DNA of 64,000 nucleotides from Eledone cirrhosa (GCA_964016885.1 OZ024743.1:169694001-169758000); one strand, 5' to 3'. Counted from the stretch's first letter, positions 7,757 to 51,620 are shown. A program made the numbers and translations. The notes: generated by a model from the letters alone, not told the origin.

Positions 7757-9385
7757 AGTTTTCCACCCTTAATCTTCGTCACAATCCGTCTCCAGTTGCA
7801 AGAGGTCGGGGACTGGAATTTCCTCCACAGGCGTTGGTGTTATTGGTGGATGGTAGTGGCGCTAGTGCTACCTCTGGCGTGGTGGTGGTGGTCTTGCTAT
7901 TGTTTCTGCTACAGTTGCTACTGCCGTTGCTGCTGTTGTTTTTTTCTTGTTAAGCCAGTGGGGTAGGCAGGAGAGGTAGCCTTCATTTTTTAGCCATCAA
8001 CTGATGGCAGAAGGCCTTTAGGTGGGTTCCACCGCCACAAACGACGCACCTTGACCTTCTACATTCAACGATTATGGTGAGGCGGCTGCCGGCATCGAGG
8101 TCTATCACCTCTGGAATCTCCCAGATATTTTTCTGGTCCGCTTGGATCAGGAGCTCCATTAAAAATCCGGACCAGTTCTACTGTTTTATTCTTATCACCT
8201 CGATGACCTTTGTGTCGTCCTCGATGTCATCGAGGACGGCAGCCATCAGCCAGGGAATTTCTATGGTCGGTGGAACCTGGGTTACCCTCTCTCTCACGAG
8301 TCTTTGTCAGCAGTAACTTGGAACTAGCGTGAACTTGTCGCTCTATAGTGGAACCATGGAGTGCTCTCTGGCTTCCTATTGAGTTCCAAGGAACACATCC
8401 ACGGTCCCATATCTTTTTCCACATATGATGTGGTTTTTCTGAGCCCACACATGTCCCAAAACCTTTGGGATCTGGGACTCGGATGCCCGCTCCCCTTGGC
8501 ATGTTTTTATGTTAATTGTATGGTATGATACTGTACATAGCTGCCGATGTTGCATGGTATTTGATGGAGGTGTGAGGCTGACTCTGTAACCATTTTTTTT
8601 CACCATTCGCCTGGCCTTATTCAGTTGGTCCTGGCTTACCTCAATCATATCGTTCTTGTTCACCGCTTTAGCTAAAGACACATTTGGTTTCGCGTTGGCG
8701 TTGGTGTTGTTGTCATTCTTATTGTTGTTGTTGTTGCTGTTGTAGTTTTTTCTTTTTCTTATTATTTTTTGTTTCAGTTGTTGCTGAGGTGGTGGTGGAG
8801 GGTAGTGGTGGTGTCAGTGGCGTTCGACGTGAATGTCCACATTGTAGGAGCATCCATTTTGTTATCACAAGATCATTTTTTTCTTTCAGTTATTGCTGTG
8901 GTGGTGGTGGTGGTGGTGGTATGAATGGTGTTGCATGTACTCCTCGACATTGTGGCGGTGGAGTTGGCGGCTTTAACACCGGTACATATTGGCAAAGGTG
9001 GAAAGTCTACGTCTGCACGTGCCAAACTTTGGCGACTGCTATTGCTAGTGCCGCTGCTGCTGCTATTAGCGAAAACGTTATCGCTGTTAGCAATTGTAGC
9101 AAGGTTCACAATGGTCGTAGTAGAAGTAGTGACAGCAAGCTTAATTTTGGGAGGTGTATACCGTCCATGTATTTTTTTTACCCCAAAAAATTGTTAGTTT
9201 GAAAAAATAAAGTTTAAATTTGGGCTCAAGGCCCCAATATTAATGAGTGTCCTTTTCAGAAGGCAATATATATGAACTTATCAACAGTTAAAAACAAAAA
9301 ATTTCCATAACTGGTAATTGGAAACAACTGAAAACAACAAATCTTTGTGGAGCTCACGATAATACGATTTCCTACGTAGATGGTC
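7757..9385 (-). mobile_element. Tx1-like LINE copy A (5'UTR plus ORF1 only; ORF2 and 3' end lost)
   Basis: 5'UTR is homologous to copies B and G. ORF1 ATG at 9168, with SLAKAV, KYGTVDVF-like motif and a CVVCGG.THLKAFC knuckle. Abuts (AAT)16. Confidence 0.85.

Positions 9386-9433
<48 letters not shown>
9386..9433. repeat. (AAT)16 microsatellite between copies A and B
   Basis: Direct reading. Confidence 0.98.
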
Positions 9434-9434
<1 letters not shown>

Positions 9435-9653
9435 TTTTCTTTATTAACCACAAGGGTTTACATAAAGTAGACATTAAGGACAGTACAGGACAATACAGGA
9501 CGGTACAAATGGGCATTTCTGCGTGTAAAAAAAACAGAGGATGTAATAAAATAACAAAGAAATATTCCCCAATAGGGGGGAGACTTCCGAGGGACATTTG
9601 TGGAGAAAGCCCATTAAAAGACCACAGTCCTCTCCCAGTTTTCCACCTTTAAT

Positions 9654-12600
9654 TTACAGACACATACTCAGAGTAGGCCCATTCACTCGGGCCATACTTG
9701 CTTCTCTCACCCATCTTTCAACAAAATGCTGGGAAGAGAGCATTTCCCTCTCTACCCTGATTTTCCTTTTCAAATGAAATTTGAAAAAGTTAATCAGGGC
9801 ATCACCGAAGAGGTAAGTGCTCGTCTTCAGCCCTTTCAAACGTGTCCACCATACTATCTCTTTCGCCATGGCCACCAGATAGATAAAAACTGCCTGCCCT
9901 TCCGGCTAAAGGGAGAGGGCGGGGCAATCCTCACGATGGACTCAGCTGATAGCTAGATCCGTCCTACACGTGACAGCAGGTGTTCGACATAAACCCACAA
10001 GTCAGCAATGCTCGGACACTGGACGAGTGCGTGCAGGACGGTTTCGTCGCCCTGCGCGCATCTCGGACATGCCCGGCTGACGGCACCTCCATGCCTATAG
10101 AGTTTATCCCGAACTGGCAAAGCTCCCCGGTAGCACTGCCAGGCCAGGGATTTCTGGAAGTTGTCCATAGGCCCCGGCCCGAAAGTTCTTCCGAAGAGAT
10201 TGGCTAGTTGATTTTCGTCGCTCTTCCCCTCCACTAATCCTCTATAGAACGCCAAGGTGGAGTTTCCACCGATCACATTGCCCGATTGGCCGAGGGCTGT
10301 GAGCGCCTGAAGATATTCCAGTCTCCCAGCGCTCCCTCTCGGTCTTCGCTTGACCCAGGACTGCAGCTCCGTCAAGGAGATGAGCTGGGGAATGACGCGT
10401 CTAGCAAACGGCGACCACACCTGATCACCGTCGATGAAGAGGTGGAGATGTCGTAGCCTGAGCACATGTCTGTTCATTATCAGCCACGGCATGCCCAGCC
10501 CTCCACGTAGATGGTGTTGAAAGCAGATGGACCTCCTGACCATCGGAGCGCGTCCCTTCCACAAAAGGCGAAAGAGCAAACGCTCCAGCGCAGTCAGGCG
10601 AGGCTTAGGACAAGGCACAGCGGTCAGGTGGTAGTAGATGACGGACATGATGTACGCGTTACCCACTTCCGCTCGATCTTTCAGGGATAGCTTCCTCTCC
10701 GCCCATTTCTGGGTGACAGAAGCCACCCTGCTCGTCACCTCGTCCCAGTTTTTGTCCGTCTGGAGGACCGGACCGAACCAGACCCTTAACAATTTAACCG
10801 GTCCGTCCGTCCAGCGCCCGACGAAACTGTTGGACGGCATGGACCTGCCTCTCCAGGTGCCGAGCTGCAAGTCAACCGACTTTTCCTGGTTGATCATTGC
10901 TCCTGTCACCGCTTCGTATTCTCTTATTGTAGTACCGATAGCCTCGATGTGTTTGGTACTACGGTGACATCGTCCGCATATGCTGACACGGAATCTTCCA
11001 CATCATAGTTCGCGCGGGACCCCCTCAACGTCTCCAGTTTGTGCAGTAATGGCTCGAGAGTCAATACGTACAAGAGGGACGAGAGGGGACATCCTTGGCG
11101 GATCGAGCGCATGATGTTGAACAGTTCTGAAAGGTGACCATTCACTCTCACCACAGAGCAGATGTCGCTGTGCATGGCAGCGATCCAGCCTCTGAAGATG
11201 GAGCCAAAGCCAGCCGCCCTCGGGACTGCCGCCAGATAACGATGGTCCACCCTATCGAAAGCTTTCGACTGATCTAAATTGATCAAGGACCCACCCGTGC
11301 CAGGTTCCCTAGCTACCCTCTCCACGATGTATCGCATGAGGTGGAGGTTGTTGTGGATGGATCTGTCGGGAATGGGGCATATCTGCGCCTCTCCTACCAG
11401 ACAACAAACGACAAGCGCCAAACTCTTTGCTAGCGCCTTGGCCAAAATCTTGAACTGTGTGTTTAGCAGAGTTTTGGGCCTGAAATTATCTATGTTATCC
11501 CCCTTGTTCGGATCCTTTTTCAGCAGCGCCACCGCTCCTCGGCTCACAGAGCTGGGAATTCTCCCGTTCTGTTACCAGTTGCAGTAGACGTCCGCCAAGA
11601 GGCTTCCGAACAAGTCTGGCATCTGTACGTAAAGTTCATAGGGCAGACCATCCAAACCTGGCGATTTACTCCTTGTGCATCCAGTCATTGCCTCCCGTAC
11701 TTCAGCTGCTGCTATCGGCTTTTCACAATACTCCGCCTCAGTGGCGGAGAGCCGCGGCAGTCCGTCGAGGTAGACACTAAAGTACATCCCTCGATCCGGC
11801 CCACCGCTGCCCCCGAACAGCTAAGCGAAGTGTCGCTGAAAAGCTTCACACATTTGCCCGGAATCGAGTAGCATGCGCCTGTCGTGGTCCAAACGGCGAC
11901 CACACCTGATCACCGTCGATGAAGAGGTGGAGATGTCGTAGCCTGAGCACATGTCTGTTCATTATCAGCCACGGCATGCTCAGCCCTCCACGTAGATGGT
12001 GTTGAAAGCAGATGGACCTCCTGACCATCGGAGCGCGTCCCTTCCACAAAAGGCGAAAGAGCAAACGCTCCAACGCAGTCAGGCGAGGCTTAGGACAAGG
12101 CACGACGGTCAGGCGGTAGTAGATGACGGACGCGATGTACGCGTTAGCCACCTCCGCTCGACCTTTCAGGGATAGCTTCCTCTCGGCCCATTTCTGGGTG
12201 AGAGAAGCCACCCTGCTCGTCACCTCGTCCCAGATTTTGTCCGTCTGGAGGTCCGGACCGAACCAAACCCCTAGCAAAATAACTTTCCTTCCGTCCAGCG
12301 CCCGACGACGCTGTTGAACGGCATGGACCTGCCTCTCCAGGTGCCGAGCTGCAGACCCACCGACTTTTCCTGGTTGATCATTGCTCCTGTCACCGCTTTG
12401 TATTCTCTTAGTGTAGTGTCGATCGCCTCAATGTGTTTGGCGTGCGACACCACTACGTTGACATCGTTCGCATATGCTGACACGGAATCTTCCGCATCCT
12501 AGTTCGCGCGGGACCCCGCTCAACGTCTCCAGTTTGTGCAGTAATGGCTCGTGAGTCAATACGAACTAGAGGGACGAGAGGGGACATCCTTGGCGGACCG

Positions 12601-14501
12601 AGCGCATGATGTTGAATGGTTCCGAAAGGTGACCGTTCACTCTCACCACAGAGCAGATGTCGTTGTGCATGGCAGCGATCCAGCCTCTGAAGACAGGCCC
12701 AAAGCCAGCCGCCCTCGGGACTGCCGCCAGATCACGATGGTCGACCCTATTGAAAGCTTTCGACTGATCTAAATTGATCAAGGACCCACCCGTGCCAGGA
12801 TCCATAGCTACCCTTTCCACGGTGTATCGCATGAGGTGGAGGTTGTCGTGGATGGATCTGTCGAGAATGGCGCATGTCTGCGCCTCTCCCACCAGACCAC
12901 CAACCACAAGCGCCAACCTCTTTGCTAGCACCTTGGCCAAAATCTTGAACTGTGTGTTTAGCAGAGTTTGGGGCCTGAAATTATCGATGTTATCCCCCTT
13001 GTTCGGATCCTTTCTCAGCAGCGCCACCGCTCCTCGGCTCACAGAGCTGGAAATTCTCCCGTTCTGTTGCCAGTTGCAGTAGACGTCCGCCAAAAGGCCT
13101 CCGAACAAGTCTGGCATCTGTACGTAAAGTTCATAGGGCAGACCATCTAAACCTGGCGATTTACCCCTTGTGCAGCCAGTCATTGCATCCCGTACTTCAG
13201 CTGCTGTTATCGGCTTTTCGCAATATTCCGCCTCAGTGGCCGAGAGCCCCGGTAGTCCGTCGATCAGGCCCGCCGCTGCCCCCGACCAGCTGAGCGAAGT
13301 GTCGCTGAAAAGCTTCACATATTTTCCCGGGTTCGAGTAGCATGCGCCCGTCGTGAGCCACCAAAAACCGGATCGTGGCTTTGTTGCCACGGCGTGTTTC
13401 CGGCACTCGGGCCCATTGAACGGCTTTCGTTCCCTCGTGTCTGAGAGCACGCACCCTAGCTCTGACAACGCAGTCTTCGTGCTTTGCATTGAAGAATTGG
13501 TCAAGGGCCAATTTCACCGCAAGTACGTCGGTCGCGATGCCTTTGGTAAGCGCCTCGTCTAATTTTCTAACTAGTTCTCCCTCTGCTACATATTTCTCTA
13601 TTGCTAAAGCCTTATTAAACCTAATGGACTCCATTCTAATCGCTCTTTTCAGAGCAAACCACCACTTGTTGTTCACAATGGCCCCCGTCAACGCCCGCTT
13701 AACTAGTTCGCCAATCCTGTCTCTGTATGCCTTGCGTGCTGTTAATGACGCGTTTAGCTTCCAGTAGCCGGGTCCTTGTCTATGAAGCCTATCTAAATCA
13801 ACGACACAGTTCACGAATTTGTGGTCCGTGTAGCTGACTGTCTTGAATTGTGGACAGCCTATGCTAGACCTATCTATTTCCCTAAAAGATATTCTATCTA
13901 GGTATGATCTGGATGACCCTATGCGATTTGTCCAAGTCCACATTGGCACATTCGGGAAATCCAATCGGTACCTTTCAGACAGTTGAAAACGCCTAAGCAG
14001 GTTGGTGAGGCTCTTGCACCCTCCTCCCCTCTCCGCTAATCCTACACTGTCCCAGCGTGCATCTAAGATACCGTTCCAGTCGCCCACTAACACTAAAGAG
14101 CGGGACGTTCCAAGAAAGGTCTCCAGACGCCGGAAGAAATCAGGCCGCCCTACTCCTGTCGGGGCATAGACGGCCACTAACCTGAAAGCTTGCCCGTCTC
14201 CGCTGGTCACGTCCAGCACCACCAACTTACCTTCTGGGTCCAGGAAGATGGCCCGTATGGCGAGATCCAAACCTCTCCGAAAAAGCACAGCAACTCCACC
14301 CCCCGATCCAGGATGGCTGGGAGATGCGTACACATCGTAGCCACCGAAGATCGATGCGAAGGCCCGTGCTTCGGAGATTCTGGTCTCGCTGATGGCCAGC
14401 ACATCTATGTTTAGTGACCTGAGGTCGTTGAGCAGGTGGCCCTGCTTCCATGACGACCCCAAGCCACGCGCATTTATGCTGCCTATTCTGAGTGAAGTCA
14501 T
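9654..14501 (-). pseudogene. Tx1-like ORF2 (APE-RT-CCHC), frameshifted, RT duplicated
   Basis: SINARG, AISETR, LVGDWN, YLDR, YTDH; KSPGLDG, AFDRVDH, RQGCPLS, YADD; CPRCAQGDETVLHALVQC. Confidence 0.92.
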
Positions 14502-14535
14502 GTTGAAAAGGAGTGGAAAAGATGGGAAAGACCAC

Positions 14536-16475
14536 TTACCTTACTTCTCGTAGGGAAAGATGGTTTCCCCATCCTTCTCACTGCTTATGGTCTCCTCCGG
14601 AAGGATGTCCTTATAATCCTCCTGGAGAGTGCTTGTCGGAAGTCTCCGATGTCCTTGGGGAATTTTTGTTTTAGTGTCGTGTACGTTTTCTGTGTGATGC
14701 GAGTGATTTGTATGTGTGGAGGTTGTGTGAATTTTTGGGGTGTTGTGTAGTCTTTTTCTGTGATGCTGGTGTTGTATTGGATGTAGTGTAATAATTGGTT
14801 GTTGTTCAAATTTAATGCTGTGTTGTGTGCATCGTTTTGGTTGGTTGTGTTTTGTTTGCGTTTGTTGTGGGTTTGTTTCTTTTTTGCTTTTTTATGACTT
14901 TTGTGGTGTTGGTGATGGTGGTGTTGGGGTTAATGATGGTGATGGTGTTGGTGGTGATGGGGTTGGTGATGCTGGTATGGATGGTGGCATAGCTGTCCTA
15001 ACTTTTTTGTTTGTTAGTTTATTGGTTTCCCCCTGTATTTTGTTTTTTGAGGGGGAAGGAAGAGGATTTTTTTCTTTTTTGGCTTCTTTTTCTTTTTTTA
15101 TTTTTTCCTGATACAGTTTTCCACTCCTCGTCGTCACAATCTGTCTCCAGTTGCGATAGGTCGGGGAGTGGAAAATCCTCCACAAGCGTTGGTTTTGGTT
15201 GTGGCGTGGTGGATGGTGGAGGCGCTGGTGCTAATTCTGGCGCGGTGGTGGTGGTGGTGTTGGTTTTGCTAATGTTGCTGGGAATGTTGCTGCTACAGTT
15301 GCTTCTGTTGTTGCTGCTACAGTTGTTGCTGACATTTCTGCTGCTGGTGGTGTTGATGGTTGAGTCACTGGGGTGGGTAAGAGAGGTGGCCTCAACTTTT
15401 TAGCCTGAGGGCAGAAAGCCTTTAGGTTGTTTCCTTCACCACAAACGACACACCTAGGCCACGATTACCGTGGGGTGGCAGTCGTCAGTGAGGTCTATTA
15501 CCTCTGGGATTTCATCCCAGATCCGGACTAGTTCTCCTGCTTTTCTTTTGTTATTTCAATTATTTTCGTGTTGGCCTCGATGCCGGCGAGGACGGGAGCC
15601 ATTAGCCAGGGAATTTCGATGGCCGGTGGAACGTGGGTCACCCTGATCTTCACGAGTTTCTGAGCACAATAGCTTGGAACGAGTGTGAAGTCGTCGCTTC
15701 TTAATGGGACAATGGAGTGCTCTCTGGCTTCCTGTCGTGTTCCAAAGAACACGTCCATGGTTCCATATTTCTGCACACGTCTGATGTGGGTTTTTGTCGC
15801 CCACATATGTCCCAAAGCTTTTTGTGTTTGGGACTCGGATGCCCATTCCACTCGGCTTGATTTTGTGTTTATCGTCCGATAAGACACGGTGCATAGACGC
15901 CGTTGCTCCATTTTATTAGGTGTGTGTGTGGGGGGGGGGCTGACCCTGTACCCATCTCTTTTTACTATTCTCTTGGCTTCATTTAATTTATCCTGGCTAA
16001 CCTCGATTGTTTCGCTTTTCTTGGCTGCTTTGGCAAACGACACATTTTGTTTCGCGGCGGTGTTGATGTTGTTATTCTCATTGTTGTTGTTGTTGCTGTT
16101 GTTTTCATTGTTATTTTTAGTTTCAGATGTGGTGGAGGTGGTGTCAGTGGTGCTCGGCGTGGAAGAGTCGATTCTGGCTGAATCCATTTCACCGCCACGA
16201 GATAATAATTTTTTTTTTTTTAGGTTTCGTTGTTGCTGTGCTATCAGTGTTGTTCGTTGTTCTTTTTGACATTGTGGTGGTGGGGGTGGCGGCTTTAATA
16301 CCTGCAGTTATTGGTAATGGCGGGAAATCCAAGTCTTTATGCGGCAATTCTAAATAATTCAGACTGCAATTAATTATATTTTCAGTGTTGGGAACCGTAT
16401 CAAGGCTTACAATGACATTGGTGTTGGTGGAGGGGGGGGGGGGGGGCTGTTGAAAACAGTAAATTTGTCGTCCAT
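14536..16475 (-). pseudogene. Tx1-like ORF1 (low-complexity N-terminus, RRM-like region, zinc knuckle, conserved C-terminal block)
   Basis: SFAKAAK, CTVSYRTI, KYGTMDVFF, RCVVCGEG, KQKFPKDIGDFR. Confidence 0.8.
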
Positions 16476-16688
16476 GTTTCTTTTCAAAGAAATATTTTGT
16501 TTGATAAGTAAAAAGTTAAAGTTTTGGGCTCAAGGTCCCAATATTTTTTGTGTCCTTTTCAGAAAGCAATATATGTGAACTTATAAACACTTAACAACAA
16601 AAATTTTCCAGAACGGTTAATTTGAAACAACTGAAAACAACAAACCTTTGCGGAGCTCACGATAATACGATTTCCTACGTAGGTCGTC

Positions 16689-16775
<87 letters not shown>
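16689..16775. repeat. compound microsatellite (AAT)11(AAG)18
   Basis: Direct reading. Confidence 0.97.
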
Positions 16776-16776
<1 letters not shown>

Positions 16777-18555
16777 GGTAACACGAAATGATTATCCCTT
16801 GGCGGTTAAGGATAAAACGCGACAAAATAAAGTAAATGTCAAATGATAAAATTTCTGACCGGATCGGCCGTCACCCGGGTCAAAAAGGGCCGCATCCCTC
16901 AGAGAGGAACCAGATTGGTCGAAAATTCAGCTAATGGTTCAAACCTTCCCATCACTTCGGAGCTGGAGACCTCCCATAACCGGAATACTCCTACTGTTGG
17001 CCCACCATGCTCACCACCAAGAAATCCAAAGAAAAAGAGAGAAAAATGGTCAAGGGAAGACAATAAAGAAGTCCTTGAGGTTTTCTACACTGCCATGTAC
17101 TACCCATCAAATAGATCGAATACAGAACAGACATATATCAACTGGAAAAAGAAACATCCCGAAAACCGAGGCTATATTGACAGTAACAAACTAGCCAAAA
17201 TATGAAGAAATATTGTTAAAAAAAGTTACTAACTGATATAGAAATTGATCAAATCAAGCTATTAGCACAAAGTCAGCGAAGGGAAAATGAAACGTGTCAG
17301 TGAAAACTAGATAAATTGTAACACTTCGAATCCCAGGGTTGGGGCGGAACCACTGACAACAGAACAAATTAAAGAAAGGATCGAAAAAGTGGAGGGAGTG
17401 CATGCTCAAGATGAAACTCAAAATGAAAACAATGAGATCGTAAATGATAAAGAAATGAATGAGAATGAACTTACCAACTTGAAGGATGAAATTATGATCG
17501 AATGGATGAAAATGAAAGAAACTGACATGGGGGAACGAGACACTCTCCCTAAGATCCAGAACCAAAAGATAATACACAAGACTAACATAATTCTCAAAAA
17601 CATCATCACAAACAAACTAAACATTACTGATTTAAATCATCTCTATTCTGCATCGGATAAAGTCACCACTCACTTATGTGGAGTGAAAATGAAAAAACAA
17701 AGGAATTCCCACAAGAAATCTACTTGGCAAGAGAACATCAATCGCCAAATAAACCTTCTCAGATCTGATATAGAAATTTTAATAAACTACAAAGTAGGTG
17801 AGCATGTTAAACAAACTAAACTTAGAAAATTGAAAAGAAAATACAGTATAAAATCAATAAATGACATAGACATGCTGATAGAAATAATCAAGCAAAAAGT
17901 GTCGACCAAAGCTGCTCGTATAAGGCGCTTTGAAAAACGATCTAGATTCTATAAGGACAATAATATGTTCAAAAACAACCAAAGAAACTTCTACAGAAAA
18001 ATTGGCAAGTCAACAATAACTGCTAAATCAATATCACCCAAGGAGGAAGTGCAAGAATTTTGGGAAAAGATCTGGGCTGAAGAAAAAGTTCATAATATAC
18101 ATGCCCCATGAATAGACAGACAAATGAAAGATACAGCTCACCTTGAGGAACAAATATGGGGAAATATAACAGTTGAACAGTTGCGTTTGGCTCTTAGAAA
18201 AACCAGCAAATGGAAATCCCCAGGAAAAGACAAAATACCAAATTTTTAAATACCTTCACAGTCTCATGAGCTGTTAGCCCAACTTTACAATGAAATAGTT
18301 AAGGAGCCAGAAAAGATACCATCATGGCTAGTTAACGGCATTACATCCCTGCTTCCGAAGAATGATGAGACAAACAATCCCCAAAATTACAGACCGATAA
18401 CTTGCTTGACCACAATGTATAAAATTTTAACATCAGTCCTAACTGAATATACATATGACCACCTGATAACAAATGATCTATTTCCCAATGAGCAGAAAGG
18501 GTGTAAACGAGGCTCATTTGGCTGTAAGGAGCAGCTTTTGTTTAACAAAATGATA
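16776..18555 (+). mobile_element. R4/Dong-like RLE-type LINE, 5' portion (3' part deleted)
   Basis: ORF from 16843 with stops: KWSREDN, KQKVSTKAARIRRFEKR, EFWEKIW, WKSPGKDKIPNF, NYRPITCL, EQKGCKRGSFGCKEQLL. Confidence 0.85.
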
Positions 18556-19094
18556 CGCGGCCAGCCAAGAAGGGGCCATCCCGGGGGGGGGGGGGGGTCA
18601 GTTTGACTCTCACAATTTTTTGCCCGCAGTAGGAGGGCACCAACACCATTTCCTCGCTCCTTAGGGTTACTAAAGATTGAGCCTTTGCCTCCTGGGGTGT
18701 GGCAAAAAGCACGTCCACGGTGGCATATTTCTTGCTTCGGGTGATATGCGTTTTCTGCTTTTTGTATTTGAGCCTCTGTGGCTCTTTCAACCCTATGTGA
18801 TTTTGTGCTTACTGTACGGTACGTGACCGTACAGTGCTGTTGGGTTTGCGAAAAATTCTTCGGCTGCCTTGCAGATTGTTCGGTGTCCGGTTTTCGGCAC
18901 CATCTTCCTTGCTTCCTGTAATTCCTCATTTGTTCTCAGGATGGTTTCCAGGTTCTTTGCGATACCTGCAAACGAAATTGGTTTTTCTTTCTTGTTGTTG
19001 TTGTCGTCAGAGCTGCAGTTACTTTTGTTGTTGCTGCTGGTACTACGACCGCCGCTGCCGCTGTTGCTGTGGTTGTTGTTGTTGTTGTTGTTGT

Positions 19095-19152
<58 letters not shown>

Positions 19153-19750
19153 TATGCTGCTGCTGATGTTGTTGCGGCTGCTACTAGTATTTTCCTCGCC
19201 ACTGTTGCTGCTGCTGCTGTTATTACGGTTGCTGCTGCTATTCTTCATGACGTCAGACGAATGAAATGGCTTTCCGTATTTACCGCACACATCTTTCGTC
19301 GTCGTCGTGGAGAAATGTTCCACGGTATGCGCGTTCTCTTGATGAAGAACGCTACGATAAACTACATTTTTCTTTTTCTTTAATTGCGTCGCTTGCGAAA
19401 GAGGCGACAGAGGCGACACCACATTTAGAGAAAGGGGGGAGAGAGACAATCTTTTCTCTGACGTAATGACGATTGGGGAAGAAGAAGAAAGAAGGAGTGG
19501 GAGTGACTTGTGAAAATTCTTTTTTGTAGCCATGTTTTTTTTACGGTTTAAAATGAATATTGGGCACAAATCCCCAATAACTGGTTATTTAACCCCCGAA
19601 GGGCCAAATAACGGGCAGAAAGACCCCTCTCACGAGGAGGAAGGTGACTTTATCTACAATTTGGTTCAAGTTTTAAACAATTTACAATTGTTATAACGGT
19701 TAAAAGTTACAATACCTTACAGAGCCGAGCCTCCGTCAACCATGGCATTC
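18556..19750 (-). mobile_element. Tx1-like LINE copy C (5'UTR plus N-terminal half of ORF1), distinct family
   Basis: ORF1 ATG at 19533; SFAGIAKN, CTVTYRTVS, KKYATVDVLF, LVPSYCGQK. Conserved 5'UTR hairpin; abuts (AAT)18. Confidence 0.82.
18990..19240. repeat. (CAA/CAG)n coding microsatellite in ORF1 (poly-N/S)
   Basis: Direct reading. Confidence 0.9.
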
Positions 19751-19804: not shown

Positions 19805-19805
<1 letters not shown>

Positions 19806-41100: not shown

Positions 41101-43774
41101 AGCAGGTTGGTGAGACTCTTGCACCCTCCTCCCCTATCCACTAATCCCACACAGTCCCAGCGTGCATCTAAGATCCCGTTCCAGTCGCCCACTATCACTA
41201 AAGAGCGGGACGTTCCAAGAAAGGTCTCCAGACGCCGGAAGAAATCAGGCCGCCCTGCTCCTGTCGGGGCATAGACGGCCACTAACCTGAAAGCTTGCCC
41301 GTCTCCGGTGGTCACGTCCAGCACCACCAACTTACCTTCTGGGTCCAGGAAGATGGCCCGTATGGCAAGATCCAAACCTCTCCGAAAAAGCACAGCAACT
41401 CCACCCCCCGATCCCGGACGGCTGGGAGATGCGTACACATCGTAGCCGCCGAAGATCGGTGCGAAGGCCCGTGCTTCGGAGATTCTGGTCTCGCTGATGG
41501 CCACTACATCTATGTTTAGTGACCTGAGGTCGTTGAGCAGGTGGCCCTGCTTCCATGACAACCCCAAGCCACGCGCATTTATTCTGCCTATTGTGAGTGA
41601 GGTCATGTTGAAAAGGAGTGGAAAAGATGGGAAAGACCACTTACCTTACTTCTCGTAGAGGAAGGACGGTTTTTCCATCCTTTTCACTGCTTGTGGCCTC
41701 CTCAGGAAGGATGACCTTATAAATCCTCCTGGAGAGTGCTTGTCGGAAGTCTCCGATGTCTTTGGGGAATTTTTGTTTTAGTGTCGTGTACGTTTTCTGT
41801 GTGATGCGAGTGATTTGTATGTGTGGAGGTTGTGTGAATTTTTGGGTTGTTGTGTAGTCTTTTTCTGTGATGCTGGTGTTGTGTTGGATGTAGTGTAATA
41901 ATTGGTTGTTGTTCACATTTAATGCTGTGTAGTGTGTATCGTTTTGGTTGTTTTGTTTTGTTTGCGTTTGTTGTGGGTTTGTTTATGTTTCGCATTTTGG
42001 TGACTTTTGTGGTGTAGGTGATGGTAGTGTTGGGGTTAATGATGGTGATGGTGTTGGTGTTTGTGGTGATGGGGTTGGTGATGCTGGCATATCTGTCCTA
42101 ACTTTTTTGTTTGTTAGTTTATTTGTTTCCCTCTGTATTTTGTTTTTGGAAGGGGAAGGAAGAGAATGTTTTTCTTTTTTGGTTTCTTTTTTTCTTTTTT
42201 TCTGATACCGTTTCCCACTCCTCGTCGTCACAATCTGTCTCCAGTTGTGATAGGCCGGGGAGTGGAAAATCCTCCACAGGCGTTAGTTTTGGTTGTGGCG
42301 TGGTCGATGGTGTAGGCGCTGGTGCTAGTTCTGGCGCGTTGGGTGGTGGTGGTGGTGGTTTTGATACTGTTGCTGGGGTTGTTGCTGTTACAGTTGCTTC
42401 TGTTGTTGCTGCTACAGTTGTTGCTGCCATCTCTGCTGCTGGTGGTGTTGATGGTTGAGGCACTGGGGTGGGTAGGAGAGGTGGCCTCAACCTTTTAGCC
42501 TGAGGGCAGAAAGCCCTTAGGTGGGTTCCTTCACCACAAACGACACACCTAGGCCTTCTGCCCTCGACAATTACGGTGAGGTGGCTGCCGTCAGTGAGGT
42601 CTATTACCTCTGGGATCTCCTCAATGCTTTTTTGGTCCGCTTGGATCAGGAGCTCCATCCCAGATCCGGACCAGTTCTCCTGCTTTTCTTTCGCTATTTC
42701 GATTATCTTGGTGTTGGCTTCGATGCCGGCGAGGACAGCCGCTATTAGCCAGGGAATTTCGATGGCCGGTGGAACGTGGGTGACCCTGATCTTTACGAGT
42801 CTCTGGCCACAATAGCTTGGGACGCTTGTGAAGTCGTCACTTCTTAATGGGGCCATGGAGTGTTCTCTAGCCTCCTCTGGTGTTTCAAAGAACACGTCCA
42901 CGGTTCCATACTTCTGCCCACGTCTGATGTGGGTTTTTTTGCCCACACATGACCCAAAGCTTTTTGGATTTGGGACTCGGATGCCCGTTCCACTCGGCGC
43001 GATTTTATATTAATTGTTCGATAAGACACGGTGCATAGGCGCCGATTCGCTATTTTATTAGGGGGGGGGCTGACCCTGTACCCATCTTTCTTTACCATTT
43101 TTTTGGCTTCTTCTAATTCCTCCTGAGTTACCTGAAATGCTTCGCACTGTTTTGCTACTCTGGCAAAACTCAGGGTGGTTTTCTTAATGTCATTGTTGCT
43201 GTTGTTGTTATCGTTATATGTGTTATTATTAATTTTAGTTTCAGTTGTGGTGGTGGTGGCGTCAGTGGTGTTCGGTGTGGAAGAGTTCTTTTTGGTTGAA
43301 TTCATTTCGATATCACGAGTTAATTTATTTTTTCTTTTCTTTCTGTTGTCGCTGTGGGGGGGGGGGGGTCGTGGTGTTGATGGTGGTGGCGGCTTTAACA
43401 CCTGCAGTCATTGGTAATGGCGGGAAATGAATGTCTGCCTGAGACAAATTTAAAATATTGCTACTGCTTATATTTTTAGTGTTGGCAAACGTAGTAATAT
43501 TTACAATGGTGGTGTTAGTGTGAAGGTGTTAGTTTGTGAGGAAGGCTGTCAGCTTCGTGTGGCTGTGAGTCTTCCATGTTTTTTTCAAAGAAAGTTTTTT
43601 TTTATAATTATAAAATTTAAAATTTGGGCTCAAGGCCCCAATCTTTTTGAGTGTCCTTTTCAAAAAACAATGTATGTGCACAATAAAAATTTTCCATAAA
43701 TGGCAATTTTAAACAAACGAAAACAACAAACCTTTGCGGAGCTCACGATGATACGATTTACTACGTAGGTCGCC
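38109..43774 (-). mobile_element. Tx1-like LINE copy G, full length (same family as B)
   Basis: ORF1 43577-41641 (RCVVCGEGTHLRAFC). ORF2 41606-38327 (583-aa APE-RT open stretch, YADD, CPRC...H...C). 3'UTR nearly identical to B. Confidence 0.94.
39855..41606 (-). pseudogene. Tx1-like ORF2 N-terminal part (APE plus start of RT), open for 583 aa before a frameshift
   Basis: ORF track; GDWN, YLDR, YTDH, GYWKLN, NFRPITLLN. Confidence 0.9.
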
Positions 43775-43780
43775 AATAAT

Positions 43781-43847
<67 letters not shown>
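43775..43847. repeat. (AAT)n
   Basis: Direct reading. Confidence 0.97.
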
Positions 43848-43848
<1 letters not shown>

Positions 43849-44012
43849 GGAAGATTCTGTCAATATAAGTACATCACAAGTCTAAACACTAAAGATGCAT
43901 GTGTGAGTATGTATGTACTTTCTTGAACATGGCGGACCTTGTTGTCTCTTGAGGTCACTGGTTGTGACTTGGTGATAACTCGTATGAACATAAAGCAAGA
44001 TAAATGCAACTG
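43843..44012 (+). mobile_element. very short 3' fragment of a second R4/Dong-like family
   Basis: Reads IRKILSI* (compare LRYVLNI* of the neighbouring copies). 3'UTR GAGGTCACTGGTTGTGACTTGGT resembles GAGGCTGCAGGTAGTGGCTTGAT. (TAA)n tail follows. Confidence 0.6.
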
Positions 44013-44031
44013 TAATAATAATAATAATAAT

Positions 44032-44216
44032 TGTTTCTACTTTAGGCACAAGGCCAGCAATTACCCAGTGCATTACTGGTACTTTATTTTATCGACCCCG
44101 TAAGGATGAAAGGCAAAGTCCACCCTGGCGGGATTTGAACTCAGATCGTAAACGGACGTAACTATGCGTCAAAGCATGGCGTCCGACCCTCCACCGATAC
44201 TGCCAATCCACCGCCC
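44032..44216 (-). mobile_element. tRNA-derived Meta-type SINE inserted in (AAT)n
   Basis: A-box-like TGGCAGTATCGG, B-box GAGTTCAAATCC, core GCCTTTCATCCTTACGGGGTCGATAAA. Flanked by (AAT)n on both sides. Confidence 0.85.
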
Positions 44217-44237
44217 TTAATAATAATAATAATAATA

Positions 44238-44452
44238 GATTGTCATAAGCGCACTAGGTACTATCACAAAAAGTTTCCAGAGTGGTTAAAGAAAATTGAC
44301 CCCTTCACGCTTTTTGGAACGCTTCAAAAGGCATGCTTGCTGGGAACAGCAAGAACCCTCCGATACGTCCTGAATATCTGAGGCTGCAGGTAGTGGCTTG
44401 ATATTCATTTCAACAAACTTTCCAGTTAACTAACATCAATGACTGAGACTCA
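44238..44452 (+). mobile_element. R4/Dong-like LINE 3' fragment with (TAA)n tail (44453-44498)
   Basis: Homologous to 46296-46512. Confidence 0.9.
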
Positions 44453-44498
<46 letters not shown>

Positions 44499-44499
<1 letters not shown>

Positions 44500-46515
44500 A
44501 CATGTCTGTCCGTAATGTGGAAACTGTTGACGAGCATTGTGTCTGAGGAAATCTACCATCACCTCCACACAAACAACTTGTTACCGGACGAACAGAAAGG
44601 ATGCCGAAAGAAGTCACGTGGTACAAAGGACCAGTTACTTATTGATAAGATGGTAATGGGGAATTGCAGGAGGAGACACACTGATCTTGCCATGGGATGG
44701 ATAGACTACAGAAAGGCATTTGACATGGTGCCTCATTCCTGGATCACCAAAAGCCTGGAGATCTTCAGGGTGGCAGATAACATCAGACAGTTGCTAGGCA
44801 GGAGTATGGGGTCCTGGGAGACAGAGTTGACATCAACTGGAGTATCCTTGGGAAGCGTGAAGATCAAGAGAGGTATCTTCCAGGGAGATAGCCTGTCCCC
44901 TCTGTTGTTTGTCCTTGCCCTGATGCCCTTGACCATTATGCTGCGAAAAGTGAGAGCAGGATACAAGTTGGGAAGGGGAGAGCTTACCATCAATCACCTC
45001 CTCTTCATGGACGATCTTAAGCTCTTCGGGAAAAGTGAGGAGTTGGATGTGCTTGTTGACACTGTCCGTATTTTCAGCAGTGATATATGTATGCAGTTTG
45101 GTATTGGTAAATGTGGAGTCATTGTGATGAAGAGGGGTAGGTTGAGCAGAAGTAACGGGATCCAGATACCAACAGGTGAGATGATAAAGGAAATTGACTC
45201 TGAGGAAGGATACAAGTATTTGGGCGTTCTGGAGGCTGATGGCATAAAGAACAAAAAAATGAAGGAATTGTTAAGAACTGAATACATTCGAAGAGTAAGG
45301 AGCGTATTGAAGTCACATCTGAACAGCAGAAATGCCATAAGCGCAGTAAATTCCCGAGCTGTGTCTATTATTAGGTACAGTGCGGGAATTCTGAGATGGA
45401 ATGTTGCTGAACAAAAAGAAATGGATAGGAAGGCTAGGAAGCTATTGACTATCTACAACATGTTCCACAAGAGGAGTGATGTCGATAGACTCTACCTAAG
45501 GAGATCTGAGGGTGGAAGAGGTCTTATCAGCATAGAGGACTGTGTTCAGATGGAGAAAAACAACCTATACAAATACGTGACCTATAGTAAGGAGCCAATG
45601 CTCAGAACTGTACTGAAGGAGGGGACAGTAGGCCAGGGGATGTCCAAGGAGGAAATAACATCAAGGAGGAAGAGCAGCCTTAAGGGAAAATCCCTTCATA
45701 GTACCTTCTTTGAGAAAACTGAATTTAGAGATCCACAGACATGGAACTGGTTGAGAAGAGGAGACCTCAAAAAGGCTACAGAAGGAATGCTAATGGCTGC
45801 GCAGGAGCAGGCCCTCAAAACGAAGTGGTTGAAGCACCATATCTACAAGGAGGAGGCTAGCCCACTGTGCAGGATCTGTGGAGAGAGAGAGGAGACTGTG
45901 GCTCACATTGTGTCCGAGTGTAAACACCTAGCCCAGACCCACTATAAGGGCTGGAGACACGATGTGATGGGCAGGGTGATCCACTGGCACCTGTGCAAAG
46001 TAAACAATTTACCACATTCTGAGAAATGGTATGAACATAGGCCAGAGGCGGTGATGGAGAACAATCAGGTGAAGGTGCTGTGGGATTTTAGGATACAGAC
46101 GGACAAAAAACTGGAACACAATAGACCTGACCTGGTGGTTGTGGACAAAGAAAAAAGAACGTGTCTGATTGTGGATGTGGCCTGCCCGTTCGACACGAGA
46201 GTGCAAGAGAAGGAGAGGGAGAAAATTAACCGATACCAGGACCTAAAGTGGGAGGTGAAAAGGATTTGGAACTGCCATGAAGTCAAAGTGATCCCGATTG
46301 TCATAGGCGCACTGGAGACTATCTCCAAAAGTTTCCAGGGATGGTTAAAGAAAATCGGCCCCTTCACGCTTTTTGGAACGCTTCAAAAGGCATGCTTGCT
46401 TGGAACAGCAAGAACCCTCCGATACGTCCTGAATATCTGAGGCTGCAGGTAGTGGCTTGATATTCAATCCAACGGACTTTCCAGTTAACCAACATCAATG
46501 ACTGAGATTCAAGGA
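44499..46515 (+). mobile_element. R4/Dong-like RLE-type LINE, 5'-truncated, intact 3' ORF
   Basis: Starts directly after (AAT)n; ORF, short 3'UTR, (AAY)n tail. Confidence 0.93.
44515..46440 (+). CDS. RT plus CCHC zinc knuckle plus PD-(D/E)xK restriction-like endonuclease (N-terminally truncated, 641 aa open)
   Basis: [79 protein letters not shown]. Confidence 0.92.
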
Positions 46516-46536
46516 ATAACAACAACAATAATAATA

Positions 46537-47584
46537 CACAAGAGGAGTGATGTCGATAGACTCTACCTAAGGAGATCTGAGGGTGGAAGAGGTCTTATCA
46601 GCATAGAGGACTGTGTTCAGATGGAGAAAAACAACCTACACAAATACGTGACTGATAGTAAGGAGCCAATGCTCAGAACTGTACTGAAGGAGGGGACAAT
46701 AGGCCAGGGGATGTCCAAGGAGGAAATAACATCAAGGAGAAAGAGCAGCCTTCAGGAAAAATCCCTTCATAGTACCTTCTTTGAGAAAACTGAATTTAGA
46801 GATCCACAGACATGGAACTGGTTAAGAAGAGGAGACCTTAAAAAGGCTACAGAAGGAATGTTAATGGCTGCGCAGGAGCAGGCCCTCAAAACGAAGTGGT
46901 TGAAACACCATATTTACAAGGAGGAGGCTAGCCCACTGTGCAAGATCTGTGGAGAGAGATAGGACACTGTGGCTCACATTGTATCCGAGTGTAAACACCT
47001 AGCCCAGACCCACTATAAGGGCTGGAGACATGATGTGATGGGCACGGTGATCCACTGGCAACTGTGCAAAGTAAACAATTTACCACATTCTGAGAAATGG
47101 TATGAGCATAAGCCAGAGGCGGTGATGGAGAACGATCAGGTGAAGGTGCTGTGGGATTTTAGGATACAGGCGGACAAGAAACTGGAACACAATAGACCTG
47201 ACCTGGTGATTTGGGACAAAGAAAAAATATCGTGCCTGATTGTGGATGTGGCCTGCCCATTCGACACGAGAGTGCAAGAGAAGGAGAGGGAGAAAATTAA
47301 CCGATACCAGGACTTAAAGTGGGAGGTAAAAAGGATTTGGAACTGCCATGAAGTCAAAGTGATCCCGATTGTCATAGGCACACTGGGGACTATCTCCAAA
47401 AGTTTCCAGGGATGGTTAAAGAAAATCGGCCCCTTCACACTTTTTGGAACGCTTCAAAAGGCATGCTTGCTGCGAACAGCAAGAACCCTCCGATACGTCC
47501 TGAATATCTGAGGCTGCAGGTAGTGGCTTGATATTCATTCCAACGGACTTTCCAGTTAACTAACATCAATGACTGAGATTCAAG

Positions 47585-47585
<1 letters not shown>
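46537..47585 (+). mobile_element. second 5'-truncated copy of the same R4/Dong-like family; (TAA)n tail 47586-47618
   Basis: Near-identical to 45466-46515; one premature TAG at ~46960. Confidence 0.93.
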
Positions 47586-47618
<33 letters not shown>

Positions 47619-47620
<2 letters not shown>

Positions 47621-49719
47621 TTTCTTTATTGGCCACAAGGGCTGACATCAAGAAAAACATTACAGACGGCACAGGACGGTACAGGACGGTACGATGTGGG
47701 TTTTGTGCGTGTAAATATTTTTATTATTTATATAAGAAAAGAAGAAAAAAAGGACATAGAAACATATATATATATATATAAACAATAAAAATGAAAATTG
47801 AAACAATGAAAAATTCCCCAATAGGGGGGAAACCTCCGAGGGTTACTCGTGGCGAAAACCACACGAAAGACCACGGCCCCCTGACCATATGGCAAGCTCC
47901 CTCTCTCAATTTTTCCATCTCTCAAACTACAGACGTATATTCAGACGTATATTCACTCGGGCCATTCTCGCTACATTCACCCACCTTTCAACAAACTTGC
48001 TAGAAAGCAGCACTTGCCTCTCCACCCTGATTTTCCTCTTCAAGTGAAACTTGAAAAAGTTAATTAGGGATTCGCCGAAGAGGCAAGTGTCTGTCTTTAA
48101 CCCTTTTAACCTTGTCCACCACACAATCTCTTTCGCCACCAGGGAGATGAAAACCGCCTGCCCTTCCTCCTCGAAGGAAGACGGCGAGACCATCTGCACA
48201 ATGGACTCAGTCGACAATCGGATCAGTCCCACACGCGACAGCAACTGTTCGACATAGCTCCACAAGTCAGCAATGCTCGGGCACTGAACGAGTGCGTGCA
48301 CGACGGTTTCGTCGCTCTGCGCGCATCTCGGACAGGCTCGGCTGACGGCACTTCCGTGCCTGTAGAGCTTATCTCGAACCGACAACGCTCCCCGGTAGCA
48401 CTGCTAGGCCAGGGATTTTGGGAAGTTATCCATAGGCCCCGGGCTGAAAGCTCTCCGGAAGAGAGCAAACAGCTGATCTTCTTCGACGCCCAGGATCTCT
48501 CCGAGAATGTCGTCGCTCTACCCCTCCACTAGTCCTCTATAGAACGCCAAGGTGGATGTTCCACCGATACTGGTGCCCAGCTGGGAGAGGGCAGTGAGCT
48601 CCTGGAGACATTCCAGTTTCCAAGCGCTATCCCTCGGTCTTTTTCTGACTCAGGACTGCAGCTCCGTCAAGGAGACGAGCTGTGGGAAAACGTGCCTGGC
48701 GAACGGCGACCACACCTGTTCACCATCAAGGAAGCACCAGAGATGTCGCAGCCTCAGCGCATGTTTGCGCATCATCAGCCATGGCAAGCCCAGTCCTCCA
48801 CGCGACGGGTGCTGACAGCAGGTAGATCGTCTGCCCATGGGAACTCGTCCCTTCATAAAAAGCGGAAGAAGAGGCGCTCCATTTTTGTCAGAGTTGGGCC
48901 GGGGCTCGGCACAACGGTTAGGCGGTAGCAGATGACGGATGCGATGAACGCATTCGCCACCTCTGCCCGACCTTTCAGGAACATCTTTCTCTCGGCCCAT
49001 TTCTAGGTGAGAGAGGCCACCCTGCTCATCACCTCGCTCCAGTTTTTCTTCAACTGGAGGTCCGTACCGAACCAGACCCCGAGCAATTTAACCGGTCCTT
49101 CTGTTCAGCGCCCCACGACGCTGTCGGACGGCATGGACTTGCTTCTCCAGGTGCCGAGCTGCAAGCCCACCGACTTTTCCTGGTTTAACTTTGCTACTGT
49201 CACTGCTTCATATTCCTTAAGAGCGGTGCCGAGCATTTGGACATGTCCGGTGCTTGACACCACCACGGTGACGTCGTCGGCGTAAGCCAATACGGATCTC
49301 CCACATTCCAGTTCGCGTCGGATGCCTCTCATCGCTTCCAAATTGTGAAGTAACGGCTCCAGGGCCAATACGTACAAAAGCGACGATAGGGGACAACCCT
49401 GGCGGACCGAGCGCATGATGCTGAACGGCTGTGACAGATGATAGTTAATCCTCACATCTTAACAGATGTCGCTGTGCATCGCAGCGATCCAACCCCTGAA
49501 AGTGGGCCCGAAGCCGGCCGCCTCGTGGACCGCCGCCAGCTACCTATGGTCGACCCTATCAAATGCCTTAGAATGATCCAAGTTGATCAAGGCCCCACCC
49601 GTGCCAGGTTCCTTAACCACCCTCTTTATGATGAATCACATGAGGTGGAGGTTGTCGTGGATGGATCTGTCTGGAATAGCGCATGTCTGCGCCTCTCCCA
49701 ACAGACCACCGACGACAAG
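47619..49719 (-). mobile_element. Tx1-like LINE copy H (RT to 3' end)
   Basis: RQGCPLSSLLYVLALEP, YADD, CPRCAQSDETVVHALVQC. 3' end GCCCTTGTGGCCAATAAAGAAATC(ATT)n. Confidence 0.9.
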
Positions 49720-49826
49720 GTCAGCAATTTTGTTGGGGGAGGGGAAGTCGATTAAATTGACCCCATGATTGGTACTTTATTTTATCGACCCCGTAAGGAT
49801 GAAAGGCAAAGTTAACCTCGATGGGA
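49715..49826 (-). mobile_element. Meta-type SINE fragment
   Basis: TTTATCGACCCCGTAAGGATGAAAGGCAAAG, as in 44088-44118. Confidence 0.8.
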
Positions 49827-51620
49827 CCATTTCTTTCATTGGCAACAACCAGAAGATGTTATTTGAACTGCTTGATAGGAAAGAAAGAGGTAACGACGTG
49901 ATCCCTGAGGCTGAACAGACTAAGGCATTCTGGAGAGGAATATGGGAGCAGGATGTTGTACATAATAGTCTGGCAGTGTGGATTGAGACAGTTAAAAAGA
50001 AGATTAGTGAACAAGCAGACCAACCACCTGATTTGAGTATCACAGCTGAAACTCTTAAAAAGCAGGCCAAAAAACTATCCAACTGGAAATCACCAGGCCC
50101 AGATGATGTTCAAGGATATTGGATAAAAATATAACACCCCTCCACCCAAAACTGACAGCCATATTCAATGACTGCTTGGTGTCGGGTGAAGTACCAGAGT
50201 GGTTGACAAAAGGTACCACAGATCTGGTAATGAAATACCGAATCAAGGGTAATGATGTTACCAACTATAGACCTATCACATGTCTGTCCATATTGTGGAA
50301 ACTGTTAACAAGCATTGTGACTGGGGAAATCTACTATCACCTCCACATAAACAACTTGTTACCGGATGAACAGAAAGGATGCCGAAAGAAGTCCCGTGGT
50401 ACAAAAGACCAGTTACTTATTGATAAGATGGTAATGAGGATTTGCAAGAGGAGGCACACTGGTCTTGCCATGGGATGGATAAATTACAAAAAGGCATTCG
50501 TCATGGTACCTCATGGATAACCAAAAGCCTAGAGATCTTCAAGGTGGCCGACAACATCAGACAGCTATTAAGTAATAGTATGAATTCCTGGGAGACAGAG
50601 CTAACATCAGGTGGAGAATCCTTGGGAGGAGTGAAGATCAAGAGAGGTATCTTCCAGGGAGATAGTCTGTTCACTCTGTTGTTTGCCTTACCCTCATACC
50701 CTTGTCCCTCATATTGACGATCTAAAACTCTTTGGGAAAAGTGAGAAGGAGTTCGATATACAACGGGTGAGATGATAAAGGAAATCGACACTGAAGAGGG
50801 ATACATATATTTGGGTGTTCTGGAGGTGGATGACATCAAGAACAAAAAATTTAAGAAATTGATAAGATCTGAATACATAAGAACATGCTAAAATCACATC
50901 TAAACAGTAGGAATGTCATAAGTGCAGCAAATTACCGAGCTGTGTCTATTATTAGGTACAGTGCGGGAATTCTGAAATGGAATGTTGCTGAATAAAAAGA
51001 AATGGATAGAAAGACTAGGAGGCTAATGACTACCTACAGCATGTTCCACAAGAGGAGTGATGTCGATAGACTCTGCTTAAGGAGATCTGAAGGTGGAAGA
51101 AGTCTTATTAGCATAGAGGACTGTGTTCAGATGGAGAAAAACAGTCCGCACAAATATGTGTCTGACAGTAGGGAGCCAATGCTCAAAGTTGTACTGAATG
51201 AGAAGTCAATAGAACAGAGGATGTCCAAGAAGGAAGTAACAACAAAGAGGAAGAGCAATCTTCATGAAAAGCCTCTTCATGGTATTTTTTTTTTTTAGAA
51301 AACGAAATTCAGAGATCCGCAGACATGGAACTGGTTAAAAAAAGAAGCCCTTAAAAAAGCTACAAAGGGAATGCTACTGGCTTCACAGTAGCAAGCCCTC
51401 AGAACGAAGTGGAGGAAACACCATGTTAACAAAGCGTAGAATCTGTGGAGAGAAAGAGAGGCAACTGTGGCTCACTTCAAAAGGCATGCTTGCTGTAAAC
51501 ACTAAGAACCCTCCGATACGTCCTGAATATCTGAGGCGGCAGGTGGTGGCTTGATGTTCATTTGAACAAACTTTCCAGTTAAATAACACCAATGACTGCG
51601 ACTGCAAGAAAAATAATAAT
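49827..51620 (+). mobile_element. older R4/Dong-like copy with internal deletions
   Basis: [48 protein letters not shown]; same 3'UTR and short AAT tail. Confidence 0.88.

Follow-up and report, generated by a model that had tools for sequence, protein, structure and literature searches.

Opposite-strand use of (AAT)n microsatellites by two LINE clades in Eledone cirrhosa, and tandem Tx1-like arrays whose spacers repeat the outer flank, probably by synthesis on a neighbouring element

How can two unrelated clades of long interspersed nuclear elements (LINEs), together with a short interspersed nuclear element (SINE), share one three-base microsatellite with each clade facing its own way, and how does an array of such elements grow? 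The question is raised by a stretch of 64,000 nucleotides from Eledone cirrhosa (GCA_964016885.1 OZ024743.1; C4:169,694,001-169,758,000), referred to here as the window, in which Tx1-like LINEs with an apurinic/apyrimidinic endonuclease (APE) and R4/Dong-like LINEs with a restriction-like endonuclease (RLE) are strung together by (AAT)n linkers. The best explanation overall, to which we assign a probability of roughly two in three, is that priming takes place on opposite strands of the tract with duplication of the target, and that Tx1 cDNA recopies the spacer off a neighbouring copy.

The arrangement described by a sequence-only reading that preceded this analysis is borne out within the window. 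From 9386 to 51620, the plus strand of every linker reads AAT (12/12 tracts), while the Tx1-like copies, nine in number and located by tblastn and blastn, are all on the minus strand and the R4-like pieces all on the plus strand. The five intact Tx1 3′ ends (9434, 19805, 25131, 38109, and 47619) join their tract in the same register, AAT followed by G, and the truncated R4 copies at 44238, 44499, and 46537 each start directly after AATA (3/3). The segment 43847-44013 proved to be a fourth clean truncated R4 copy, from a second family (b). The SINE of the window lies on the minus strand, as does Tx1, and the array's one stretch of (ATT)3, at 43223, falls within a Tx1 open reading frame 1 (ORF1) region. 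There are 10 tracts of at least four units in the 38 kb of the array and 19 in 400 kb of samples taken at even spacing, so their density in the array exceeds chance. These samples (40 of 10 kb across the genome) and 200 kb beside the window make up what is called unselected DNA below.

The two LINE groups carry different enzymes. The 1204-codon ORF2 frame of the Tx1-like element (P0138, locus L240) gives matches to Exo_endo_phos, RVT_1, and zf-RVT, corresponding to APE, reverse transcriptase (RT), and a CCHC motif, while the ORF1 of young copies is a separate upstream frame of 714 codons with a CCHC knuckle visible by eye and no Pfam match. In a quick maximum-likelihood tree of 41 hand-picked rows, none of them a protein named Kibi, Koshi, Keno, or Dong, the Tx1-like RT groups with a vertebrate clade holding the “transposon TX1 uncharacterized 149 kDa” protein (Shimodaira-Hasegawa-like likelihood-ratio support 94, SH-aLRT; moderate support) and apart from the Ciona pol-like and Closterium rows. 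Its nearest named relative is an Argonauta hians protein with 73% identity, and the ESM Atlas returned generic APE-RT clusters only. The R4/Dong-like element has a single frame of 1141 codons (P0017, L156) with an RVT_1 match followed by CCHC and RLE and with no APE; its CCHC, RHD, PD, D, and E..K..Y motifs were read from the sequence. Its best PDB matches are R2 proteins, the nuclease stretch included, and its protein search matches were unannotated lepidopteran and shrimp proteins only. Two families are present, R4a and R4b, with 42% identity over 540 amino acids; the R4 clade label is a presumed one, drawn from N-terminal and RT motifs. Runs of at least nine other organisms contain 20-37% of sampled words from window positions 43000-50000, and other species thus carry closely related elements. 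A metagenome scan for flanked relatives gave 34 pattern matches, of which 0 were confirmed.

Across the genome, the young intact Tx1 5′ ends, counted by an exact 22-mer, directly adjoin (AAT)4 or more in 1,596 of 1,655 cases (96%), against a threshold of more than 20% of flanks for target preference (PMC4494074), and 2,609 of 3,336 Tx1 3′ ends directly follow (AAT)4. Two older Tx1 5′ types have (AAT)3 or more adjoining the end in 29/30 and 25/30 copies, and R4a and R4b 3′ ends lie at a tract in 28/28 and 28/30; these sets hold the approximately 30 best-matching copies each, the older-type and R4a sets including the window's own copy. With chained alignments, 39 of 53 apparently truncated R4a copies begin at an AAT tract and 0/53 at the opposite (ATT) tract, several of the 14 misses being alignment breaks. 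Truncated Tx1 copies are thinly sampled, with 5/16 beginning at a tract and 7 of the 11 misses ending at a single position where another 5′ half joins. An earlier unchained count (Tx1 14/94, R4 40/101) was replaced as it had been inflated by alignment breaks against diverged references.

The polarity seen in the window is followed at 605 of 617 element-tract junction sides (R4 202/208, Tx1 310/313, SINE 93/96), most of the loci having been picked via element ends and 19 sides (inverted tracts or weak scores) having been dropped beforehand; in unselected DNA, 44/45 sides conform. Among the exceptions, at least five are joints at AAT/ATT inversions. Tracts reaching four units are sparse (19 in 400 kb), and 14 of 17 merged tracts in the unselected samples touch one of these elements. 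Since the 5′ flanks of both clades are tracts, both target (AAT)n, with the opposite polarity that had been proposed. The sequence-only reading had named random 5′ flanks and random orientation as outcomes contrary to it, and neither was seen in the genome-wide counts. Formation of the tails by slippage alone is ruled out, given that full-length Tx1 and truncated R4 copies have tracts as their 5′ flanks.

Two further features of the tracts were recorded. At L016, L178, L180, L233, L235, L259, and L264 an (AAT)n tract is fused to (ATT)n, with polarity-conforming elements on each side, and these fusions are inversion breakpoints within tracts. Before some R4 5′ ends an (AAG)n run follows the AAT tract (window 16722-16775; L006, L009, L041, L154, L156, L179, L311), and the R4 5′ ends so preceded begin with AAGGGAAGAAG; the (AAG)n is possibly a product of slippage at the R4 5′ junction.

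How the target is renewed is best read from the SINE, a dispersed element of approximately 180-190 bp. Among 128 of its 3′ ends examined, 32 had readable target duplications with unique bases, which measure 9-21 bp (median 16.5) and begin with ATTAT in 28/32. As the duplication begins directly at the last base of the SINE, the element adds no tail. A duplication of this size falling inside a tract would make two tracts of one. In unselected DNA just 4 of 43 SINE 3′ ends have at least four AAT units, hence the short motif ATTAT is all that the SINE needs, and the view of it as a microsatellite specialist is not supported. Its last ~24 bases resemble Tx1 ends by eye, with the same strand and register, although CR1-like 3′ ends carry ATT too. 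By eye, its head has A/B-box-like sequences; ARAGORN and Rfam gave no tRNA match. Renewal of the target is therefore real, as had been claimed, though it proceeds mostly by target duplication and not by an added tail. Units are added too, in that 9 of 20 pure linkers exceed the length of the outer tract, and young R4 copies inherit a tail containing AAC, so this tail is copied from RNA.

Growth of the arrays can be followed in young Tx1 copies. A protein search found many intact ORF2 frames of 1,195-1,204 codons, often ~6.05 kb apart, from which nine array regions and 20 single loci were retrieved; in the arrays (numbered A1 and so on) as many as nine full-length copies follow one another head to tail, their two ORFs mostly open. 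Linkers between copies measure 21-257 bp and some include unique DNA. Of the 21 imperfect linkers (30-257 bp, from six loci), 20 are copies of the array's outer 5′ flank that begin precisely at the 5′ boundary of the neighbouring copy, with 18 being exact prefixes of that flank and 2 differing solely in a homopolymer or dinucleotide run. Their lengths differ inside one array, namely 127, 127, 140, and 160 bp in A9 and 30, 36, and 51 bp in A4, and they end at AAT (once at AAC), those of A9 at a single ATTAAT. The first tract of the linker has the unit count of the outer flank in 20/21. In an examination of 127 3′ ends, Tx1 copies lacking a neighbour of their own family showed no duplication of unique sequence, and across LINEs in general such duplications were confined to copies adjoining a same-family element and to a single duplicated R4 unit. 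Transduction of 5′ flanks was set aside as the linker source, with 24 young 5′ flanks sharing no unique flank and the linkers matching their own locus. A dispersed AT/AC-rich host repeat with imperfect AAT tracts seeds arrays A1, A4, and A9 (L108, L150, L242, L256, L301, L309).

A spacer of this type could in principle be a very long but plain target-site duplication, generated if the second nick cut the ATT strand at the border of the following tract, with no pairing to the old copy. The 91 bp linker of A8, which repeats ~70 bp beside a truncated neighbour with a one-unit slip, would fit such an origin, as would the several neighbours that match over their first 155-300 bases only, a region hardly variable in young copies. 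It is an improbable one nonetheless, given the agreement of first-tract unit counts in 20/21 imperfect linkers and the lack of unique-sequence duplications around solitary Tx1 copies (127 3′ ends), and it leaves unexplained the 5′ runs of 1-5 kb that are common to neighbours.

Neighbouring copies are seldom clones, as 27 of 34 neighbour pairs differ by at least ten substitutions and 4/34 are near clones, and of the 890 differences, 586 involve two alleles that each occur at other loci. Identical 5′ runs of at least 1 kb are found in 16/34 neighbours compared with 4.0% of 885 between-array pairs, and identical 3′ runs of that length in 3/34 compared with 0.8%, the pairs in these statistics not being independent. 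These figures bear on a DNA-level origin of the repeated spacers, by unequal exchange or replication slippage between flanking tracts with later gene conversion from other loci. Such events have left their mark: c2 and c4 of A6 have private alleles in common from end to end, c3 and c4 of A1 are identical, members of A3 (c3 excepted) are 1-3 substitutions apart, L152 contains a duplicated truncated R4 unit, and private alleles are common to 3′ halves as well. As the general source of spacers they are unlikely, however, for each linker length would demand a fresh exchange on a few bases of AAT homology, most neighbours differ by ten or more substitutions at alleles mostly found elsewhere, and sharing extends further from the 5′ end.

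Nearly every young copy, those at dispersed loci included, is a mosaic of shared haplotype blocks, which suggests frequent recombination among RNAs or copies. Seven copies with the type-A 5′ end (L159, L162, L163, L090, L093, L166, L168) diverge from copy 1 of A1 at position 2266, near the ORF1/ORF2 boundary; type-A and young elements share ORF2 and the 3′ end and not the 5′ untranslated region and ORF1. The single switch position fits an exchange of 5′ halves between families. Chimeric L1 elements were reportedly the subject of work by Gilbert et al. in 2005.

The explanation that we favour for these observations would run as follows. The Tx1 APE would make its first nick behind ATAAT in the AAT strand, as would be the case for the SINE, and the R4 RLE would nick the ATT strand first, so that the opposite layout of the two clades is likely to reflect priming of reverse transcription from opposite strands, each with duplication of the target. 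An ordinary insertion at a lone site would duplicate ~17-21 bp and turn one tract into two usable ones. If the nick has a same-family copy immediately downstream, the cDNA would pair with the 5′ part of that copy, copy this part, and continue through the spacer to the nick by strand invasion or template switch, leaving a chimeric copy of full length and a duplicate of the spacer; some units would be added later by unequal exchange at the DNA level. Pairing of the cDNA with the neighbour would explain why the linkers are anchored exactly and graded in length, how 5′ chimeras arise, and why the arrays hold full-length copies; a switch of the cDNA onto the neighbour with recopying of the spacer is the most likely course of events.

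A number of observations weigh against this. The position of the nick is ambiguous within a pure repeat. The A8 linker (1/21) copies the flank of the other side. Once normalised, the excess of 5′ over 3′ sharing is modest, with p 0.064 over all 34 pairs and 0.016 over the 18 joined by imperfect linkers. Of the 36 shared alleles private to one array, 16 fall within the 3′-terminal 3.8 kb, and the A6 c2/c4 pair, the A1 c3/c4 pair, and the R4 pair in L152 look like plain DNA duplications. In 8 of 12 chimera-like pairs the 3′ part of the upstream copy was nearer to another locus; its own array was nearer in 3, and one pair was tied, in a comparison where other loci outnumber array members. The linkers of the window, being tracts with few or no imperfections, give no view of the spacer-copying step. 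Finally, 3′ ends of a third LINE clade followed by (ATT)n also lie at tracts on the Tx1 strand (L117, L164, L216, and others); by its C-terminal motif this clade is CR1/L2-like. All four such ends counted (4/4) are on the Tx1 strand, which hints that tail pairing alone could set polarity.

The last point belongs to a different account of the polarity, in which the endonucleases are loosely specific for AT-rich DNA and the site and orientation are set by pairing of the primer with (AUU)n or (AAU)n in the RNA tail. Any LINE so tailed would then join the array. Such pairing could set the polarity in place of endonucleases acting on opposite strands, yet it would alter only the cause of polarity and can act jointly with them. 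Besides the CR1-like ends, the RNA-copied AAC-containing tail of young R4 and the use of minimal ATTAT sites by the SINE agree with it. As a replacement for strand-specific nicking it is very unlikely, since 96% of young Tx1 5′ ends are at four or more units though such tracts are as sparse as 19 per 400 kb, and sequence-specific nucleases are known from relatives in either clade (PMC4640811, PMC4494074).

The window itself is an old example of the arrays present across the genome. Its copies are 68-96% alike and each distinct, frames are broken, and several joints are deletions; no tract mediates the joints at 18560, ~29520, 49719-49830, and 51621-51637. The sequence-only reading had likened the locus to a telomere. 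This likeness does not hold, given that the window is interstitial, at 169.7 of 378.8 Mb on its sequence in a genome of 3.0 Gb, that arrays are dispersed in both orientations, with separate clusters near the window pointing in either, and that this array is one of many. Others lie at C1:234.59 Mb, C1:441.09 Mb, and C2:124.75 Mb, for instance, and telomeric retrotransposon arrays (TRAS/SART, HeT-A/TART) are found at chromosome ends.

From its left end, the array begins with Tx1-like copy 1 (7757..9385, -), a 5′ part with ORF1 and a type A 5′ end whose 3′ part is lost, and an (AAT)16 linker (9386..9433, +) joins it to copy 2 (9434..16688, -). Copy 2 keeps its two ends and has APE, RT, and CCHC in broken frames, with an internal duplication (10405-11886/11890-13355). 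An (AAT)11(AAG)18 linker (16689..16775, +) leads to the 5′ part of an R4/Dong-like family b element (16776..18560, +), which abuts the 5′ part of copy 3 (18561..19750, -), the 5′ end of which is that of the young array-forming family. Beyond an (AAT)18 linker (19751..19804, +) lie copy 4 with a type B 5′ end (19805..25112, -), a linker of (AAT)4 GAT AAT (25113..25130, +), copy 5, which has lost its 5′ part (25131..29520, -), and copy 6, which has lost its 3′ part (29523..38060, -). Copy 6 is split at ~31700-36480 by a LINE with APE, RT, and RNase H on the minus strand, inserted without an AAT tract and I-group-like. An (AAT)16 linker (38061..38108, +) and copy 7, with two ends kept and an internal deletion near 39332 (38109..43774, -), complete this half.

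The remainder is denser in short elements. An imperfect (AAT)24 linker (43775..43846, +) precedes the 5′-truncated 3′ end of family b (43847..44013, +), which was absent from the sequence-only reading, and an (AAT)6 linker (44014..44031, +) separates it from the 187 bp SINE, the 3′ end of which resembles Tx1 3′ ends (44032..44218, -). A second (AAT)6 linker (44219..44237, +) is followed by a 5′-truncated R4/Dong-like family a copy (44238..44452, +), an (AAT)15 linker (44453..44498, +), and another 5′-truncated family a copy (44499..46515, +) with a 647-codon open frame and RT, CCHC, and RLE motifs. Its tail has the AAC units common to young copies and then (AAT)3 (46516..46536, +), after which come a further 5′-truncated family a copy (46537..47585, +) and an (AAT)11 linker forming a tail-to-tail joint of R4 and Tx1 (47586..47618, +). 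The array closes with copy 8, its 5′ part lost (47619..49719, -), a SINE fragment (49720..49826, -), a decayed family a copy with an approximate 5′ limit (49830..51611, +), an (AAT)3 linker (51612..51620, +), and copy 9, which has lost both ends (51638..55616, -).

Could arrays of this kind be artefacts of assembly, joined at microsatellites? Near-identical 6 kb units are hard to assemble, and in another sample with the same species label no contig or 150-base read spans the window's array. The idea is nevertheless hardly credible: the window copies are all distinct, no N occurs in the window or in the neighbour, sample, and array stretches checked, and a mis-join would not yield locus-specific linkers of graded lengths. 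Among raw reads of the other sample, moreover, 30,292 pass from the R4 3′ end into (ATA)n and 1,568 (~60 starts) contain the R4/(AAT)n/R4 joint.

Other elements flank the array. A Gypsy-like long terminal repeat element at 2150-7168 has 209 bp direct repeats that are 98% alike and matches to RT, RNase H, and integrase in broken frames. At 56275-56859 (-) there is a decayed RT-like frame that resembles Penelope by eye and has no Pfam match, and at 57066-57190 a SINE lies outside the array in opposite orientation.

The wider claim that an octopod Tx1 lineage routinely completes its 5′ junction by a switch from its RNA to a resident 5′ end, with RLE elements and the SINE reusing the regenerated tracts on either strand, is one towards which the balance tilts slightly. 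If true, truncated cDNAs would be rescued to full length, 5′/ORF1 halves would be recombined with foreign ORF2 halves, and up to ~260 bp of target would be duplicated per round, so that arrays of intact elements would build themselves. The 5′ junction and second-strand completion of LINEs are still an open question, on which the arrays offer many natural, marked events; these appear to point to homology-directed completion on the neighbouring copy. The enzyme can be assayed, since the family has ~1,650 5′ ends that are nearly identical and a good number of intact frames, and the use of opposite strands of one 3 bp repeat by APE and RLE elements allows a direct comparison of target choice. That most longer AAT microsatellites sampled here are retrotransposon junctions bears on markers, on assembly, and on the history of octopod genome size.

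Every component of the sequence-only account has a precedent, and known already are insertion of Dong into (TAA)n, convergence of APE and RLE elements on one target, opposite orientation, and tandem R1 arrays. The spacer-copying arrays are the part that a specialist would find surprising. Neither an (ATT)n-specific Tx1 lineage nor a spacer-copying array was found in the literature searched, though Repbase, figure 3 of PMC4494074, or Kojima and Fujiwara (2004) may list such a Tx1 family; the parts covered of PMC8967140, PMC3747384, PMC4758252, PMC9115989, and PMC2881922 hold nothing on an (ATT)n target. In octopus, Dong-R4 elements are plentiful and have been active recently, with active Dong-R4 and L1-Tx1 listed for Octopus vulgaris (PMC13282606), a paper in which the parts covered do not mention the target sites of either.

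Dong elements (Dong, DongAg, DongBg) share with the R4-like families the RLE-type single-ORF structure and insertion into (TAA)n (PMC3812793), but here at least two families share tracts with opposite-facing APE elements. Among Tx1-clade APE LINEs, a microsatellite preference is shared with Kibi and Koshi, which target (TC)n or (TTC)n (PMC3812793, PMC4494074), and with crocodilian families preferring (TTCC)n/(TTTC)n (PMC4494074). The elements described here differ from these families in having (ATT)n on the sense strand as target, in forming a separate branch with the Argonauta protein, and in combining several 5′/ORF1 types with related ORF2s in large tandem arrays. Parallel evolution towards one target, with occasional tandem insertion, is seen with Keno (APE) and Utopia (RLE) in U2 snRNA genes (PMC4640811); those elements share one 3′ flank in a gene, whereas here opposite strands of a microsatellite are used and each clade nests within junctions of the other. 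TRAS and SART of Bombyx mori are likewise two families in one simple repeat, in opposite orientation and in arrays (PMC10088271), but both are of the R1 clade and lie at chromosome ends, while the present elements belong to unrelated clades and are interstitial and dispersed. In Drosophila rDNA, tandem R1 arrays grow as each insertion duplicates and regenerates its target (PMC2718515), with linkers fixed at 14 bp in contrast to the linkers of 21-257 bp found here, which take in unique DNA and are anchored at the 5′ end of the neighbour. The proposed copying step has a parallel in templated (SDSA-like) insertions of L1, in which the cDNA leaves its RNA, pairs with nearby DNA, and duplicates less than 250 bp (bioRxiv 10.1101/2024.08.27.596794); those are rare and somatic (22 cases), whereas in E. 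cirrhosa the event appears to be usual beside a same-family copy and is fixed in the assembly.

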